Below are positions 1-4,274 of a stretch of DNA of 4,274 nucleotides, one piece after another. Below the pieces are notes generated by a model. That model was not told where the DNA came from. It did no database searches and saw only the letters and a list, made by a program, of their open reading frames with translations. Source of the stretch: a virus (lineage: Duplodnaviria > Heunggongvirae > Uroviricota > Caudoviricetes); IMG/VR virus record IMGVR_UViG_2737471869_000021, positions 1 to 4,274 of that record; one strand, written 5' to 3'. The position numbers and the translations under genes were made by a program. Numbering within the stretch: the first letter of the stretch is position 1; each line of letters begins with the position of its first letter.

Positions 1-192
1 TCAGGAGCATTTCTGATTAACGCCACCGTTAAGAATCCACCCTTCAACAGCTTCACGAAGGTATGATTTGGGGTGGGTTCTGACTGGCTTCGGAAATCCG
101 TGTCGTTTGGTATAGTTCCAGATTGTCTGACGTGATGAAACACCGAGCTTGTTCATCACTTCTTTCTCAGGAATCAGGCTGGTATCGGTCAT
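1..192 (-). CDS. AlpA-family helix-turn-helix DNA-binding protein, putative prophage excisionase / regulator (63 aa)
   Basis: Complete ORF with ATG at 192..190 and TGA at 3..1. A GGAG Shine-Dalgarno sits 7 nt upstream (minus-strand 'ctGGAGaattaagATG'). The protein (MTDTSLIPEKEVMNKLGVSSRQTIWNYTKRHGFPKPV...EAVEGWIL) has the AlpA/Xis-like pattern of short HTH, 'FPKP' and a conserved W near the C-terminus. Its position at the distal end of the ea region matches the xis slot upstream of int in P22-like phages. Confidence 0.7.
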   Translation of the reverse strand: MTDTSLIPEKEVMNKLGVSSRQTIWNYTKRHGFPKPVRTHPKSYLREAVEGWILNGGVNQKCS

Positions 193-206
193 CTTAATTC
201 TCCAGG

Positions 207-230
207 CAAAAAGAAACCGCCATCAGGCGG
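207..230 (-). terminator. Putative intrinsic (rho-independent) terminator, minus strand
   Basis: Minus-strand RNA would form a GC-only stem CCGCC-UGAU-GGCGG (plus 217..230), extendable by A-U and G-U pairs, followed directly by UUUCUUUUUG (plus 216..207). It lies between the 55-aa ORF and the AlpA-like gene. The plus-strand orientation has no U-tract. Confidence 0.45.
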
Positions 231-390
231 CTTGGTGTTCTTTCAGTTCTTCAATTCGAATATTTGTTACGTCTGCATGCGCTATCTGCGCCCATATCAT
301 CCAGTGGTTATAGCAGTCGTTGATGTCCTCTGCTTCGATAACCCTGTCGAATGGCTCTCCATTCCATTCACCTGTGACTCGGAAGTGCAT
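223..390 (-). CDS. Hypothetical small protein (55 aa), below the ORF-track size cutoff
   Basis: Manual translation: ATG at 390..388, TGA at 225..223, giving MHFRVTGEWNGEPFDRVIEAEDINDCYNHWMIWAQIAHADVTNIRIEELKEHQAA. A GGAG Shine-Dalgarno sits 7 nt upstream ('tatGGAGatgataaATG'). The stop codon lies in the loop of the downstream terminator hairpin. The residue composition looks protein-like. I recognise no family. Confidence 0.4.
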   Translation of the reverse strand: MHFRVTGEWNGEPFDRVIEAEDINDCYNHWMIWAQIAHADVTNIRIEELKEHQAA

Positions 391-490: not shown

Positions 491-1084
491 TTAGCCACGG
501 TTAACCTCCTGAGGCGGTTCTGGTAGCGGCATCCAGTGGGTTACTCCATGCCATATACCAGTTGAGGTTTCAAACCTTGGCTCTCTGCCTTTCTGTGTCT
601 TGGCATATTCATTCCTTGTATATACGCATTGTCTAACTGCATATCCATTCCATCCAATAACTGTTTGTCTAATTTCTGGCATTCGCTCACTACAGCTTAT
701 CCAGCTATCCTTAATGCCACTATCTTGACTCTGAAGCATGGCGGCACGACAGGCGTTCCAGCCTCTCACCTCTGCAATAGCGGCAACAGCATCGACCGCG
801 TACATTTTAAGAGGGTTAGGCATTGGTTTTTCTTCAGGTACTACTGGAATGGGTGGGGCGGCGTAGACCTCAATAATTCCATTATCAATAGGCCATTCTC
901 CATCCTTGAGGTAGTCACTTGTGCCGTCAACTTGCTGTTCTGCAATGTGGAATGCACCTATTGGTTTTGCCTCAAGCGATGCCAGTGCAATTCGTGCCAG
1001 TTCCATTTGTTCGCCACGGGTAAGCCCGTTTTCAAGCGGGGATTTAATGAACAATTCGATACGTTCTTTAGTGATAGTGCTCAT
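491..1084 (-). CDS. DUF551-domain phage protein (197 aa from ATG 1084; the track's longer 224-aa form from 1165 is less likely)
   Basis: The C-terminus carries the DUF551 hallmark (...WISCSERMPE...GIWHGVTHWMPLPEPPQEVNRG). The preferred start MSTITKERIELFIK has a strong Shine-Dalgarno (minus 'AAAGGAGagtgatATG'). That start lies 1 nt after the upstream gene's TGA (1088..1086), so the two genes are coupled. The 1165 start would overlap the Ea22-like gene by about 80 nt out of frame. Confidence 0.7.
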   Translation of the reverse strand: MSTITKERIELFIKSPLENGLTRGEQMELARIALASLEAKPIGAFHIAEQQVDGTSDYLKDGEWPIDNGIIEVYAAPPIPVVPEEKPMPNPLKMYAVDAVAAIAEVRGWNACRAAMLQSQDSGIKDSWISCSERMPEIRQTVIGWNGYAVRQCVYTRNEYAKTQKGREPRFETSTGIWHGVTHWMPLPEPPQEVNRG

Positions 1085-1085
1085 A

Positions 1086-1784
1086 TCACTCTCCTTTGAT
1101 GCGAATGCCAGCGGCGCGTGGCACATTAACTTCCACGATGCGCACTGTTGGTTTGTACATCTCAATCGCTGTCAGCCAGTCAGCTCCTGCCATGCGCTTT
1201 TCCGCATCGCCATTAGTCCACTGAACCGGTACACCAATAGCCTTCATCGCGATTTCTATTTCCCCGGCAATGGCGCTTTTTCCGCAACCAGTAAAACCAG
1301 AAACAACGACAAGAACTTCGCCTTTGGCTGGTTTTATTTCCCGCGCTTCCAGTTTTGCTATGCGCTTCTCTGATGCTTCAAGTAACGCCTGCTTATCGCG
1401 TAGCGCTTCTTCCAGTTCAGCAACATGGCACTCACTATCAATAAGGTTGTTCTCTGCGGCTTCCAGCTCAACGCGCAACTTCCCTACCGTTAACGCAATC
1501 TCCTCGTTCTCCTGGTCGCGGCGTTTGATGTATTGCTGGTTTCTTTCCCGTTCATCCAGTAGCGCCTGCACTACTTCAGGGTTGAAAGCTGCGATATAAC
1601 GAGCGTTGTTCTCTGCGTTTTTCTGTCCATCAAAGCCGGTCCATTTGATAACGTCTTCACATCGTTTATCACCGGGCGTATGCACCGCATACGTACCAGT
1701 ACCAGACGAAATAAATGCGACCCATTCGCCCGGTGTTGCCTGTTTTGCTATCTCACGCAGTGCCTGATAATTAATTTCGCTCAC
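1086..1784 (-). CDS. ea22: Ead/Ea22-like family phage protein (232 aa), GTG start; central coiled coil and a C-terminal Walker-A-like motif
   Basis: An in-frame TAA lies immediately upstream of GTG 1784..1782, so this is the first possible start. It is preceded by a strong Shine-Dalgarno ('gcAAAGGAGGctgtaaGTG'). The N-terminus ([24 protein letters not shown]...AAFNPEVVQALLDE) matches my recollection of the Ead/Ea22-like N-terminal domain. The centre is a heptad-rich coiled coil (RERNQQYIKRRDQENEEIALTVGKLRVELEAAENNL...EEALRDKQALLEASEKRIAKLEA). The C-terminus contains VLVVVSGFTGCGKSAIAG. Confidence 0.7.
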   Translation of the reverse strand: MSEINYQALREIAKQATPGEWVAFISSGTGTYAVHTPGDKRCEDVIKWTGFDGQKNAENNARYIAAFNPEVVQALLDERERNQQYIKRRDQENEEIALTVGKLRVELEAAENNLIDSECHVAELEEALRDKQALLEASEKRIAKLEAREIKPAKGEVLVVVSGFTGCGKSAIAGEIEIAMKAIGVPVQWTNGDAEKRMAGADWLTAIEMYKPTVRIVEVNVPRAAGIRIKGE

Positions 1785-2266
1785 TTACAGCCTCCTTTGC
1801 GAAGCTCTGCAGCGAAATATACAGCTGCGGAAACAATAGCTGCATGTCGGCATTCACCATCAGAAAATAAAGAATCTCCCTTAAGTGCATTGACGATACT
1901 CTGATGATTTTTTGCCAGCATCTCAACCCCCTGCGCCCGGACTTCAGCCAGGAAAGCATCGGTGGCTGGGGTGTCTGATTGCAGAGACTTTGCGCGATAG
2001 TCATTCCACCCTCTTGCATACATGGGATTAACTCGCACTCCATCTTTTACGCAATATGCCTGACCTCCACGGTTGATAACCTTGATTTCGTCCATAGCGC
2101 CAGACTTCAGCCCCGCATTCTCCGCCGCCAGCGCCGCGCACTTGGCCTCCGCTTCAGCAAATTTACGCACCAGATATTCAGCGTTTGTTTCGTTAACCTT
2201 TAAATCACTTGGGATGCATTTACCTTTCAGAAAACCATCCATCTCAATTAGTGACATTAGTTTCAT
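1781..2266 (-). CDS. Hypothetical phage protein (161 aa), ea-region gene of unknown function
   Basis: ORF with ATG at 2266..2264 and a moderate Shine-Dalgarno (GGAG/GGGAAG upstream). Its TGA (1783..1781) overlaps the GTG start of the Ea22-like gene as GTGA. The protein ([16 protein letters not shown]...[35 protein letters not shown]...[19 protein letters not shown]...) has no family I can name. Confidence 0.6.
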
Positions 2267-2437: not shown

Positions 2438-2734
2438 TCAGTCATTACTGATAGCGCCATAGCGTGAGCGGTAATTACGCAGGCGCGGGTCGATATATTC
2501 AGGGAATTTGTCTATTGTCGCTTTTCGCAACGGTCTCATTGCTGTTTCGTTTGTTCGGTCCTTCTCCTGTTTTAGCGCGAGTTGTATATCGCGTCGGTAC
2601 ATCCGTTCTGCTTTTGTTTCTGGTGTCAGAGCAAGAAACGCGTCGAAATTGTTTTTGATATTTTCCAGCACCTCCGCCTTGGAGCTACCGGAGCAATTGC
2701 GCGGGTCATCCGCACCATACAGAGGCGCTGGCAT
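2438..2734 (-). CDS. abc2: Probable anti-RecBCD protein Abc2-like (98 aa)
   Basis: Clean ORF with ATG 2734..2732 and a good Shine-Dalgarno ('AAGGAttccattATG'). The size is close to the roughly 97 aa I recall for P22 Abc2, and it lies downstream of erf in transcription order. The N-terminus MPAPLYGADDPR... matches what I recall of Abc2-family proteins. This is an assignment from memory and synteny, not a search. Confidence 0.5.
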   Translation of the reverse strand: MPAPLYGADDPRNCSGSSKAEVLENIKNNFDAFLALTPETKAERMYRRDIQLALKQEKDRTNETAMRPLRKATIDKFPEYIDPRLRNYRSRYGAISND

Positions 2735-2757: not shown

Positions 2758-3141
2758 TTAGAAGGGAATTGAATCGTCGTATTCAGGATGATTTTGATGA
2801 TTGCTACTTTGTTGCTGTTGGCTGTTTCCTGAAGTTGCAAATCCAATCTTTGCATTCAGTAATTCAAGAGTGATTGATTGACCATTTTGCCCCTGATAAA
2901 CATCAACCCTGATGTTTTCTCCGGTAATTTCTACAATTCCACCTTCAACAAGAACACTACGGTAGTAATCCGCTTGCGCTCCCGGCTTGGCAAATACAAC
3001 GGCGCTGTAGTTTGTCCATTCTTTCTTTTTTGTCTGGCGATCGTAATACTGAACGCCAGCACGGATGTTGAATCCGATATTTTCCCCGGCCTGAAACTCT
3101 CTTGCGGGCTTGTTTAGTCTTACAGTAATCGAATGTGCCAT
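2758..3141 (-). CDS. ssb: Phage single-stranded-DNA-binding (SSB-like) protein, minimal OB-fold with C-terminal acidic tip DDSIPF (127 aa)
   Basis: The protein ends ...SGNSQQQQSSNHQNHPEYDDSIPF, a Gln-rich linker plus a D-D-x-I-P-F tip like the C-terminus of bacterial SSB (...DDDIPF). The core (KEWTNYSAVVFAKPGAQADYYRSVLVEGGIVEITGENIRVDVYQGQNGQSITLE) resembles the SSB OB-fold segment ([32 protein letters not shown]...). Its ATG (3141..3139) overlaps the erf TAA (3143..3141) as TAATG. Confidence 0.7.
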   Translation of the reverse strand: MAHSITVRLNKPAREFQAGENIGFNIRAGVQYYDRQTKKKEWTNYSAVVFAKPGAQADYYRSVLVEGGIVEITGENIRVDVYQGQNGQSITLELLNAKIGFATSGNSQQQQSSNHQNHPEYDDSIPF

Positions 3142-3746
3142 TAAGCAGCCGCTCCTTCTAATTCATCTCGTCTGATGTTGTAAACGTCCTGCGCTTTGTG
3201 CTGCTCCGGTGTGCCTTCGAGCATCTTCCACGCTTTGGCGAACGCCTGTTTAAGCTCTTCCACGTTGTTTTTCTGCATTGCTGCGTCAGTGAATGCTTTT
3301 AGAACCTGTTCAGGTGTAGGTGATGGTTTTGATTGCTTTGCTGCTGCGTTCTGCTGATGTTTATGCTCGTCTGTATCTGCATCTTTCGCATCATCAATGC
3401 CGAATAAACCATTGAGGCAATACTTGCGTGCATAAGAGCTTGTAGCTCCCGTAACTTGTGCAGAATCCATTCCTTTCTTGCTTTCTTCCTCTCGTGCAAG
3501 AGCGGTTGCCGTATGACTGTTTTCGCCATCGGTAATAGTTGCCGTGGCTTTCACGTAATACCGATCACCAATCAACACAACTTCATCGCTGATTGATAAA
3601 AACAGGCCATTCAGTAACGGTTTAACACCTTCAAGAATATCTTCGCAGCTTCTGTATTTATATTTACCGAATGAGTTGTAATGATTTTTTGGCGCGTTCA
3701 GATTCTCCTGAATAGCTGCCAGTCTTGCGTAAAATTCTTTGCTCAT
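3141..3746 (-). CDS. erf: Erf-family single-strand annealing recombinase (201 aa from ATG 3746)
   Basis: The N-terminus MSKEFYARLAAIQENLNAPKNHYNSFGKYKYRSCEDILEGVKPLLNGLFLSISDEVVLIGDRYYVKATATITDGENSH... closely matches P22 Erf as I recall it. The track's 211-aa form begins at a TTG (3776) that adds MGHVHSENKH; the ATG at 3746 is the likelier start. Confidence 0.85.
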   Translation of the reverse strand: MSKEFYARLAAIQENLNAPKNHYNSFGKYKYRSCEDILEGVKPLLNGLFLSISDEVVLIGDRYYVKATATITDGENSHTATALAREEESKKGMDSAQVTGATSSYARKYCLNGLFGIDDAKDADTDEHKHQQNAAAKQSKPSPTPEQVLKAFTDAAMQKNNVEELKQAFAKAWKMLEGTPEQHKAQDVYNIRRDELEGAAA

Positions 3747-3756
3747 ATGTTTGTTC

Positions 3757-3927
3757 TCAGAATGGACATGGCCCAAGTAAATAACGCTGATTTAATACTT
3801 CAGTCTTTGCCGCATTTAAAAATACGCGAACACCTTCACGATCTCCCTTCTGGCGATACATTAACGCCTGCTGCGTGTACATGCGTCTCTGTAACTTGCT
3901 CTCCTTCACTGTGGTTGCAAGTGACAT
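3757..3927 (-). CDS. Small protein (56 aa) immediately upstream of erf; positional candidate for an Arf-like accessory gene
   Basis: Manual translation: ATG 3927..3925 with a very strong Shine-Dalgarno ('cgaAGGAGatattcATG'). Protein MSLATTVKESKLQRRMYTQQALMYRQKGDREGVRVFLNAAKTEVLNQRYLLGPCPF, TGA at 3759..3757, 10 nt before the erf ATG. It is below the ORF-track cutoff. It overlaps ORF 3836..4006 out of frame by 92 nt. Confidence 0.45.
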   Translation of the reverse strand: MSLATTVKESKLQRRMYTQQALMYRQKGDREGVRVFLNAAKTEVLNQRYLLGPCPF

Positions 3928-4006
3928 GAATATCTCCTTCGTTACCGATTAAATCTTTCATCTGACGAATGAATTCTTCGTCTGACCAGTTATCTGTAAA
4001 ACTCAT
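3836..4006 (-). CDS. Alternative small ORF (56 aa) coupled to kil; conflicts with ORF 3757..3927
   Basis: ATG 4006..4004 overlaps the Kil-like TGA (4005..4003) as ATGA. Protein MSFTDNWSDEEFIRQMKDLIGNEGDIHVTCNHSEGEQVTETHVHAAGVNVSPEGRS. The N-terminal half looks protein-like; the C-terminal half is low-plausibility and lies in the overlap. The Shine-Dalgarno is weak. The track's 61-aa version starts at a GTG (4021) with no Shine-Dalgarno. Confidence 0.25.
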   Translation of the reverse strand: MSFTDNWSDEEFIRQMKDLIGNEGDIHVTCNHSEGEQVTETHVHAAGVNVSPEGRS

Positions 4007-4155
4007 TTCCTGCGATACCACGGAAGGTTGATAGCTGATTTCATCGCTTTATTTGCTTCAAACCACATTTTGGAATCACCAATAAATCTGGCTATTACTG
4101 CTTTGTTTTGTGCAGCACGAAGCATCTGATGATTTATGGCTATTTCATTGCGCAT
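4003..4155 (-). CDS. kil: Kil-like host cell-division inhibitory peptide (50 aa)
   Basis: Manual translation: ATG 4155..4153 with a GGAGG Shine-Dalgarno 4 nt upstream ('ctGGAGGcattATG'). Protein MRNEIAINHQMLRAAQNKAVIARFIGDSKMWFEANKAMKSAINLPWYRRK. It lies immediately downstream of cIII and overlaps its 3' end, matching the cIII-kil order in lambda and P22. The ...IA.FIGD..M..EA... core matches my recollection of lambda Kil, but this is unverified. Confidence 0.5.
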   Translation of the reverse strand: MRNEIAINHQMLRAAQNKAVIARFIGDSKMWFEANKAMKSAINLPWYRRK

Positions 4156-4274
4156 AATGCCTCCAGTTGTTTCTTTGCTGCTCTGATTAATTGTTTAACT
4201 CGGCGTGATAATTCAGATTCGTGCGGGTAGAAAGCGGACATGACGCCGCTACCCGCGAGCTGAAAGTGCATCAT
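4140..4274 (-). CDS. cIII: CIII-like regulatory protein (FtsH/HflB inhibitor), 44 aa; start codon at the window edge
   Basis: Manual translation from the ATG at 4274..4272 (a second ATG at 4271..4269): MMHFQLAGSGVMSAFYPHESELSRRVKQLIRAAKKQLEALCAMK, ending at TAG 4142..4140. It resembles lambda CIII (MQYAIAGWPVAGCPSESLLERITRKLRDGWKRL...), sharing the xAG segment and the P-x-ES-x-L...R..+.L amphipathic helix. The Shine-Dalgarno lies outside the window. Confidence 0.65.
   Translation of the reverse strand: MMHFQLAGSGVMSAFYPHESELSRRVKQLIRAAKKQLEALCAMK

Follow-up and report, generated by a model that had tools for sequence, protein, structure and literature searches.

A small Walker A-bearing module as an exchangeable C-terminal head of an Ea22-like phage protein

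The Ea22-like protein encoded in the window (the whole 4,274-nucleotide stretch of DNA analysed here) ends in an autonomous module of about 65 amino acids, spanning residues ~156-218, which carries a conserved Walker A loop and is found either alone or fused to unrelated phage proteins. The module is under strong purifying selection, and it sits on the Ea22 scaffold as an exchangeable C-terminal cassette. The explanation that we consider best, with a probability of roughly 0.55, is that this is a self-contained, horizontally shuffled mini P-loop module, corresponding approximately to the first half of a P-loop NTPase core and functioning as an oligomerization-dependent head for Mg-NTP or another phosphate ligand. 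The Ea22 part of the protein and the type of motif were known already; what is new is a natural family of P-loop-bearing modules less than half the size of a canonical NTPase domain. The module is unannotated in Pfam, NCBIfam, and PHROGs, and its genes are labelled only "ead/Ea22-like" or "hypothetical".

The Ea22 scaffold and its exchangeable head

The window comprises the early-left region of an HK022/HK446/P22-like prophage, with all genes on the minus strand (Table 1). The integration site of the prophage adjoins sbcB and the his operon, and the integrase gene follows in the full prophage. As expected of an Ead/Ea22-like gene, the gene under study lies in the early-left position between the recombination genes and xis/int. 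Its GTG start codon overlaps the TGA stop codon of the upstream gene (GTGA), and the exact 232-aa protein is encoded on at least 24 contigs, in prophages adjoining sbcB/his. An ORF at 3757-3927 was rejected as the homologue of HK446 gp33 after it gave no alignment; the true homologue is the overlapping ORF, in another frame, that is listed in Table 1.

Table 1. Genes of the window and features of the Ea22-like gene and protein
Feature	Position	Strand	Remarks
cIII-like gene	4140-4274	-	
kil-like gene	4003-4155	-	
gp33 homologue (HK446)	3836-4006	-	
erf	3141-3776	-	
SSB-like gene	2758-3141	-	
abc2	2438-2734	-	
Oad2/EaE-like gene, 161 aa, upstream of the Ea22-like gene	1781-2266	-	Related to HK446 gp27 (40% identity, E = 2e-34)
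Ea22-like gene, 232 aa	1086-1784	-	GTG start
Ea22-type N-terminal region, residues 1-69	1578-1784	-	PF13935; BLASTP against lambda Ea22
Central coiled-coil region, residues ~70-150	1335-1577	-	Coiled-coil-type family matches; comparison with lambda Ea22
5' cassette joint, residues 141-156 (KRIAKLEAREIKPAKG)	1317-1364	-	Last part common to many N-terminal contexts
Mini P-loop module, residues 156-218 (EVLVVVSGFTGCGKSAIAGEIEIAMKAIGVPVQWTNGDAEKRMAGADWLTAIEMYKPTVRIVE)	1131-1319	-	Homologue searches, alignment, selection
Walker A motif, G163-F-T-G166-C-G168-K169-S170	1275-1298	-	Invariant G/G/K/S/A; AlphaFold helix start
E-K-x-x-T-[HG]-A-D-W motif, residues 195-203	1176-1202	-	Conservation; EKRMAGADW in the window copy
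Hydrophobic stretch TVRIVE, residues 213-218, ending in Glu	1131-1148	-	Candidate Walker-B-like element
C-terminal tail and 3' cassette joint (VNVPRAAGIRIKGE)	1089-1130	-	AGIRIKGE common to lambda Ea22
AAGGAG, Shine-Dalgarno sequence of the downstream gene	1091-1096	-	Inside the Lys-Gly-Glu codons of Ea22; read from the sequence
DUF551 gene, 197 aa, downstream of the Ea22-like gene	491-1084	-	Called from ATG at 1084 in other assemblies
Small ORF	223-390	-	
AlpA-like gene	1-192	-	

Pfam Ead_Ea22 (PF13935) matched residues 2-146 of the protein with a score of 136.1 bits (E = 1.5e-39; cut-off, 27 bits), and coiled-coil-type families matched residues ~71-150. BLASTP revealed that the N-terminal region starts as lambda Ea22 does and has an insertion relative to it, and that the coiled coils of the two proteins have in common LLDERERNQQYIKRRDQENE.IALTVGKLRVELE and KRIAKLE. 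The Walker A motif is contained in VLVVVSGFTGCGKSAIAG (residues 157-174), and 62 residues follow S170. These results bear out the layout proposed in a sequence-only reading of this DNA, namely an Ea22-type N-terminus, a coiled coil, and a Walker A motif with about 60 residues behind it. The C-terminal module is acidic, with a pI of ~5.0.

Ea22 has been described as an N-terminal region and a coiled coil followed by a variable C-terminal domain, of which the variants lambda, V1, V2 (DUF551), and V3 have been distinguished (Goddard et al. 2024, PMC10834534). The window protein follows the same three-part plan with a variable acidic head (pI ~5), and it resembles lambda Ea22 in its N-terminal start, its central coiled coil, and its last eight residues, AGIRIKGE (35% identity, with long identical blocks), as well as in its genomic slot between the recombination genes and xis/int. 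By contrast, the C-terminal cores of the two proteins are unrelated: when the module profile was compared with the lambda C-terminal domain, hhalign returned a probability of 0.2%. On this ground a C-terminal domain of the lambda type, a beta-beta-alpha-beta-beta-alpha dimer (PMC10834534), was rejected for the window protein. The lambda-type domain is diagnostic of the lambda variant alone and not of PF13935 as a whole.

Searches with the full-length protein and with the head indicate how the two parts travel. With the full Ea22-like protein, tblastn matched 387 phage records, most of them over residues 1 to ~110-150 only. On 80 viral contigs, the C-terminal region is at least 93% identical behind at least 15 different upstream sequences, all of which converge on the joint RIAELEAREIKPAKG / RIAELEAREIKPAKGEV. 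Given that these upstream sequences share the joint and that lambda Ea22 shares both flanks, the cassette is bounded by two conserved joints. None of the phages that define V1-V3 (933W, Sakai, 24B, and P27) is among the 27 phage records found to carry the module, and the module head is thus a further Ea22 variant. Literature searches on Ea22 with Walker A or P-loop, and on exo-xis with ATP-binding, retrieved no description of it.

Spread, conservation, and selection of the module

The 27 records were found when 50,697 phage records were searched by tblastn with residues 150-232; 14 of them are of enterobacterial type, with genes annotated as "Ea22-like" or hypothetical (phiV10, D6, JL22, O157 typing phages 9 and 10, and others). 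In gp37 of Burkholderia phage BcepC6B the module forms the N-terminus of a 199-aa protein, and in Ralstonia and Burkholderia jumbo phages it lies in the middle of a protein of 347 aa. A word-index search with the gp37 segment retrieved 83 proteins, many of which are complete at 68-90 aa; when the divergent domain of the Ralstonia jumbo phages served as the query, no candidates were retrieved. The 69-aa protein P0124 (MSKVTITVSGRVGSGKSAICGEIEILCKALGLKVEWIDGQQEKNLTHADWTEALEMYKPHVVLIESIEK) is an example of a module encoded alone. We also searched a family profile made from 90 sequences (alignment A1) against 1.84 billion cluster representatives (50% identity clusters), and obtained 556 matches at E <= 1e-3, 444 at E <= 1e-10, and 268 at E <= 1e-30. 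As judged from sequence profiles, the mini P-loop family is discrete and sharply bounded, and does not merge into the general P-loop superfamily.

Of the 218 sequences sorted by architecture, 105 end in the module, 65 begin with it, seven carry it internally, and 41 consist of it alone; standalone examples are 68-75 aa long. Few of its partners are recognized by Pfam: Ead_Ea22 was found in 15 of 135 proteins, a DnaJ-type zinc finger in three, Lar and anti-TRAP in two each, and DUF4406 in one. In betaproteobacterial proteins, the module is often tethered through a linker rich in Ala, Pro, and Gln. A scan of one genome per species detected 14 loci, located in gamma-, beta-, and alphaproteobacteria, and the hosts are as different as Escherichia, Methylobacterium, and Ralstonia. 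Within E. coli, module DNA is present in 647 of 5,426 complete genomes, and 147 of the places are on plasmids. Since standalone genes stop at ~70 aa in many contexts, we rejected the possibility that the window gene is a split gene or encodes a truncated NTPase; the split-NTPase reading is also ruled out by the downstream DUF551 protein, which is without NTPase features.

The standalone genes occupy places comparable to that of the window gene. They are located between Erf/RecT plus exonuclease genes and xis/int in Achromobacter prophages, in the early region of a Mu-like element, next to DUF551 genes in other prophages, and, in one case, in a chimallin-encoding jumbo phage. Across the module loci examined, there is no constant neighbour gene that points to a pathway. 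In three unrelated contexts (the window and loci L105 and L106), a DUF551 gene is a direct or close neighbour, and an N6/N4 methyltransferase gene follows the module gene in Achromobacter prophages; neither association is universal.

Alignment A1, whose members range down to 30% identity to the window copy, revealed 12 invariant residues: G166, G168, K169, S170, A171, E175, I176, E177, I178, E195, D202, and P212. Conserved in at least 90% of its sequences are G163, G174, A182, G184, K196, T199, A201, W203, V214, and E218, of which G163, K196, T199, W203, and E218 come close to invariance. A second alignment of 135 representatives (A2) agrees with A1, and E218 (E69 in domain numbering), which is nearly invariant in A1, is invariant in A2. 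The family signature that emerges from the sequences is GxxGxGKSAxxGEIEI ... EKxxT[HG]ADW ... YxPxVxxxE. The divergent Ralstonia jumbo-phage branch is without GEIEI and HADW and keeps GxxGxGKSA, the Trp, and RIVE. At the coding level, the median dN/dS was 0.057 over 1,213 pairs drawn from 58 distinct module coding sequences. The window copy has Ala at position 199, which is occupied by Thr or Ser in 334 of the 338 sequences collected; because the exact protein recurs on the contigs counted above, this copy is an established allele and not an error.

The Walker A motif by itself is weak evidence, and it is conservation that decides its meaning. A string of this kind could arise by chance in a C-terminal tail with no relation to P-loops, and the loose pattern [AG]xxxxGK[ST] did appear in 1.7% of 200,000 shuffles of the Ea22-like protein. 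However, the strict pattern, a hydrophobic run followed by GxxGxGK[ST], appeared in a fraction of only 5e-6 of the 200,000 shuffles, and the motif is invariant down to ~30% identity and across three classes of Proteobacteria. Together with the discreteness of the family and the retention of the Walker lysine in 336 of 338 collected sequences, this invariance rules out a chance match, to which we attach a negligible probability. The sequence-only reading had left open a degenerate module, a novel small one, or chance. The autonomy of the ~65-aa unit and its standalone genes support the novel small module, and the invariant motif and the low dN/dS rule out both chance and a decaying remnant. That reading had also proposed that conservation of the lysine be checked among Ea22-like homologues. 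Conservation held within the module family, but as a comparison of Ea22 homologues the check is ill-posed, because the C-terminal domain is a swappable cassette present in far fewer phage records (27) than match the Ea22 protein (387).

Predicted structure and relation to P-loop NTPases

[quoted passage not shown] The first model (pLDDT 82.3, pTM 0.69) has predicted helices at 20-33, 45-49, and 54-61 in domain numbering, and the second (pLDDT 88.3, pTM 0.75) has them at 16-29, 39-46, and 50-57. In both, the Walker lysine is the first residue of helix 1, which is also the arrangement seen in genuine P-loops. The segment before the Walker A loop is non-helical in the models, and DSSP assigns zero beta-strands in either of them. 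The EKxxT[HG]ADW stretch is modelled as one short helix plus the beginning of the helix after it; D202, at a helix N-terminus in the models, may be purely structural. Low pLDDT values (53-67) were assigned to the C-terminal tail of the window protein. The Walker A segment itself was modelled as neither helical nor disordered, either of which, according to the sequence-only reading, would have spoken against a P-loop.

Comparisons of these models with known folds gave faint matches. A Foldseek search of the PDB with the window model found nothing at E <= 0.001 (best E = 2.4), and the top fold match for the P0124 model was an unrelated helical domain. The weak matches to P-loop folds were mostly to SIMIBI-class proteins, including Cfd1 (3.8 A), dethiobiotin synthetase (3.1-3.4 A), GPN-loop GTPase (2.8-3.4 A), SRP54 (2.4-3.3 A), ArsA, ParA, the MinD-like FlhG, and MipZ. 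With SIMIBI proteins (dethiobiotin synthetase, GPN-loop GTPase, SRP54/FtsY, and MinD/ParA/Mrp), the likeness consists of a local superposition of 44-55 residues at 2.3-3.9 A. Our reading is that the models predict a locally P-loop-like geometry in a domain whose small size keeps a single copy from forming the canonical sandwich; its sheet may be completed solely in an oligomer. The nucleotide-binding module suggested from the sequence is therefore upheld in part: in the models the loop runs straight into a helix beginning at the Lys, but the models contain no DSSP beta-strand and match P-loop folds weakly, and nucleotide binding itself is a prediction.

Sequence databases gave a concordant picture. 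In scans of Pfam and NCBIfam, no model reached threshold for the module. The PHROG scan gave matches to "unknown function" families only, and none for the standalone members, and PADLOC reported nothing significant (best match, Avs2, E = 0.008, 11.7 bits) and zero matches for standalone members. Below threshold, almost all Pfam and NCBIfam matches were to P-loop families; over 90 members, Pfam gave AAA_16 (38), nSTAND_NTPase5 (37), AAA_18 (30), APS_kinase (26), AAA_30 (25), and ATPase_2 (19). Most of these alignments are confined to the loop, the first strand-like segment before it, and helix 1 after it; those to nSTAND_NTPase5 are ~60 residues long and reach the conserved Glu.

Like canonical P-loop NTPases, the module has a GxxGxGK[ST] loop behind a hydrophobic segment, a predicted helix that begins at the Lys, and, 49 residues past the Lys, an acidic residue that follows a later hydrophobic segment. 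In compact ASCE ATPases, Walker A and Walker B are separated by a similar distance. The candidate Walker B element, TVRIVE, has a single Glu, E218, and is not of the form hhhhD[DE]. Unlike canonical P-loop NTPases, the module is without strands 4-5, base-recognition elements, and a lid, and has its own GEIEI in helix 1 and EKxxT[HG]ADW motif. It also does not form a complete three-layer alpha/beta core with at least five strands, and the smallest canonical P-loop NTPase domains are of ~150 residues or more, as against ~65 in the module.

No PDB sequence was matched significantly by the family profile, and the best hits, 9jix (E = 0.024) and 6c2u (E = 0.039), are engineered proteins: 6c2u belongs to the minimal P-loop prototypes of the Tawfik laboratory, and 9jix is the de novo ATPase PL2x4_2. 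The module is like them in size and in its consensus-like beta-(P-loop)-alpha arrangement, but they are laboratory constructs, whereas the module is a natural family under selection and has extra invariant acidic residues. This likeness is to the consensus and is not useful homology.

Proposed function and significance

In the mechanism that we favour, the module would run from an extended hydrophobic segment through the Walker A sequence GxxGxGKS and helix 1 to a second extended segment, then through a pair of short helices with EKxxT[HG]ADW to a third hydrophobic segment that closes with the conserved Glu. Two features suggest that the loop would bind a ligand through its phosphate, the ligand most probably being Mg-NTP: the Lys-Ser pair is invariant, and a conserved Glu lies 49 residues downstream. 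K169 and S170 would hold the phosphates and metal, and E218 would serve as a Walker-B-like acid. Since ~65 residues cannot build a complete nucleotide pocket, the module presumably works as an oligomer. Full-length lambda Ea22 is a tetramer and its C-terminal domain a dimer (PMC10834534); by the same token, the coiled coil of the window protein may bring two to four copies of the module together. Judging from genomic context, the module would be an early-expressed accessory or host-takeover head whose target is the lysis-lysogeny balance or host defence rather than phage replication. In lambda and some Stx phages, Ea22 has a pro-lysogenic effect (PMC7093339, PMC10834534), so the link to the lysis-lysogeny decision that the sequence-only reading mentioned is right for those proteins.

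The surroundings of the gene also bear on host defence. A 2026 preprint proposes the locus as a hotspot of anti-defence genes and notes that domains of the Oad2 type are fused to Ead/Ea22; in HK446, gp33 triggers the defence protein OLD, an ATPase-nuclease, and gp27 (Oad2) inhibits OLD directly (bioRxiv 10.64898/2026.07.10.737580). The module shares its locus and its mosaic, cassette-like evolution with the EaE-related Oad2 and further accessory genes found at the lambdoid recombination locus, but it shows no sequence similarity to Oad2. We hypothesize that the module could have anti-defence activity.

Several other functions can be envisaged for a domain of this kind. One possibility, which we regard as less likely, is that it is a non-catalytic, general binder of phosphate ligands, such as polyphosphate, a phosphoprotein, or the backbone of ssDNA or RNA. 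The engineered beta-(P-loop)-alpha prototypes behave in this way, being functional only as oligomers and binding NTPs, ssDNA, RNA, and polyphosphate (bioRxiv 10.1101/2020.07.30.228619); the module is about as small as they are, its best PDB sequence matches are designed P-loop proteins, and its gene in the window lies among the recombination genes erf, SSB-like, and abc2. On the other hand, an acidic module with a pI of ~5.0 is poorly suited to binding nucleic acid, and the Ser that invariably follows the Lys is expected for Mg-NTP, as is the conserved Glu, whereas a plain anion binder needs neither. Another, unlikely, possibility is a decoy half-site that mimics the Walker A half of a host ATPase (e.g., of the STAND, ABC, or SIMIBI type, in defence or the cell cycle) and poisons its dimer or oligomer, or else a sponge for a nucleotide signal. 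The longest sub-threshold alignments are indeed to the STAND-type families nSTAND_NTPase5 (~60 residues), AAA_16, and ATPase_2; the neighbouring gene is related to a direct OLD inhibitor in a proposed anti-defence hotspot; and modules are occasionally fused to Lar and anti-TRAP-type zinc modules. Yet no significant similarity to any defence protein was found, the Avs2 match at E = 0.008 being the best from PADLOC, and hosts as diverse as those listed above argue for a very conserved target or a small-molecule ligand and not for a fast-evolving defence protein.

A broader formulation, to which we give similarly little weight, treats the module as a natural half P-loop that would complete a nucleotide site through self-association or by docking on another ATPase, and would act as a nucleotide sponge or as a decoy that blocks STAND-, ABC-, or SIMIBI-type defence or cell-cycle ATPases, delivered either by itself or attached to a scaffold, for instance the Ea22 coiled coil. 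It is very unlikely, in our view, that the module is a structural relic of a P-loop NTPase, that is, a dimerization or packing domain whose loop is kept for folding. Such a relic would fit with the other Ea22 C-terminal domains, which are simply dimeric acidic heads (PMC10834534), with AlphaFold models that are without a canonical sheet, and with a window copy that tolerates T199A and is common. However, folding can hardly explain the near-invariance of the ligand-contacting G, G, K, and S and a dN/dS of 0.06, and a glycine-rich loop is structurally unfavourable unless it is used.

Ea22 is a long-standing puzzle of the lambdoid phages, whose variable C-terminal heads are thought to carry its function. 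The variant described here is the first Ea22 head with a recognizable biochemical handle, the Walker A loop. A natural Walker A family of ~65 residues also bears on the minimum size of a functional P-loop protein, a question that has so far been explored only with engineered prototypes. Finally, its presence in a locus proposed to be rich in anti-defence genes makes the module a reasonable candidate for screening against defence systems.

Residue 199 and the C-terminal tail of Ea22

Within the mini P-loop module of Ea22, residue 199 is Ala in the window (codon GCA, 1188-1190), whereas 334 of the 338 collected family sequences carry Thr or Ser at this position, so that the motif reads EKRM-A-GADW in place of the family EKxxT[HG]ADW. 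The exact window protein, including Ala199, is found on at least 24 contigs. The Ala199 version may represent a functionally altered allele.

Ea22 ends in Lys-Gly-Glu, recorded in PMC7093339 as a conserved tripeptide, '+GE', of unclear significance. In the window, the tripeptide and stop (1086-1097) are encoded by AAA GGA GAG TGA, and the Lys-Gly-Glu codons contain the Shine-Dalgarno sequence AAGGAG, located 6 nt upstream of the ATG of the next gene (1084; codon 1082-1084). Given that these codons hold the Shine-Dalgarno sequence of the following gene, and that the entire AGIRIKGE tail is common to the Ea22 proteins of lambda and the window, the tripeptide may owe its retention to translational coupling and to a role as recombination joint rather than to what the protein does.

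Neighboring genes and hairpins

A mechanical ORF call placed the DUF551 gene at 491-1165 on the minus strand, with a TTG start and 224 aa, running into the end of Ea22. PHROG alignments to this ORF start only at residue 28, and the gene is called as 197 aa in other assemblies; we therefore rejected the TTG-start version in favor of the shorter gene. The terminator-like hairpins flank a small ORF (223-390) and precede an AlpA-like gene; the whole window contains eight terminator-like sites versus a shuffle expectation of 4.9, a small excess.

Features of the window, with positions and strands
Feature	Position	Strand	Remarks
DUF551 gene	491-1084	minus	start MSTITKERIELF
Three terminator-like hairpins with T-runs	214-233, 410-429, 440-461	minus	downstream of DUF551 gene
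Oad2-like gene, 161 aa	1781-2266	minus	directly upstream of Ea22; similarity to HK446 gp27
Gp33 homologue, 56 aa	3836-4006	minus	ATG internal to listed ORF 3836-4021

Two products of phage HK446 have been linked to the defence protein OLD: HK446_033 ('Gp33') is reported to trigger it, and gp27, named Oad2, to inhibit it (2026 preprint, bioRxiv 10.64898/2026.07.10.737580). The Oad2-like protein is 40% identical to gp27 overall (E = 2e-34), with the first ~36 residues near-identical and the C-terminal half diverged; on this alignment, it is a mosaic relative of gp27. HK446_033 is near-identical to the 56-aa ORF product, and ORF 3757-3927, which overlaps it in another frame, showed no similarity to HK446_033.

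Module copies elsewhere

Proteins P0192 and P0203 (locus L108, 6001-6411), from a jumbo phage that encodes a chimallin, contain the module fused to a C-terminal segment that matches PF04957, ribosome modulation factor, below threshold (21.5 bits against a cut-off of 27.9; E = 2.5e-4). A 3-kb contig (L012, JAIHTM010000290.1), labelled Collinsella sp. MAG and binned as actinobacterial, carries another copy, which shares 98% identity with the E. coli-type cassette; most probably this contig is a piece of an enterobacterial phage that was assigned to the wrong bin. Variovorax phage VarioGold, which also has an Ead/Ea22-like gene, encodes in its early region, next to the SSB gene, the 98-aa VG_p38, described as 'AAA+-type ATPase / P-loop ATPase family' (PMC9658991). 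VG_p38 is possibly a further member of the mini P-loop family.
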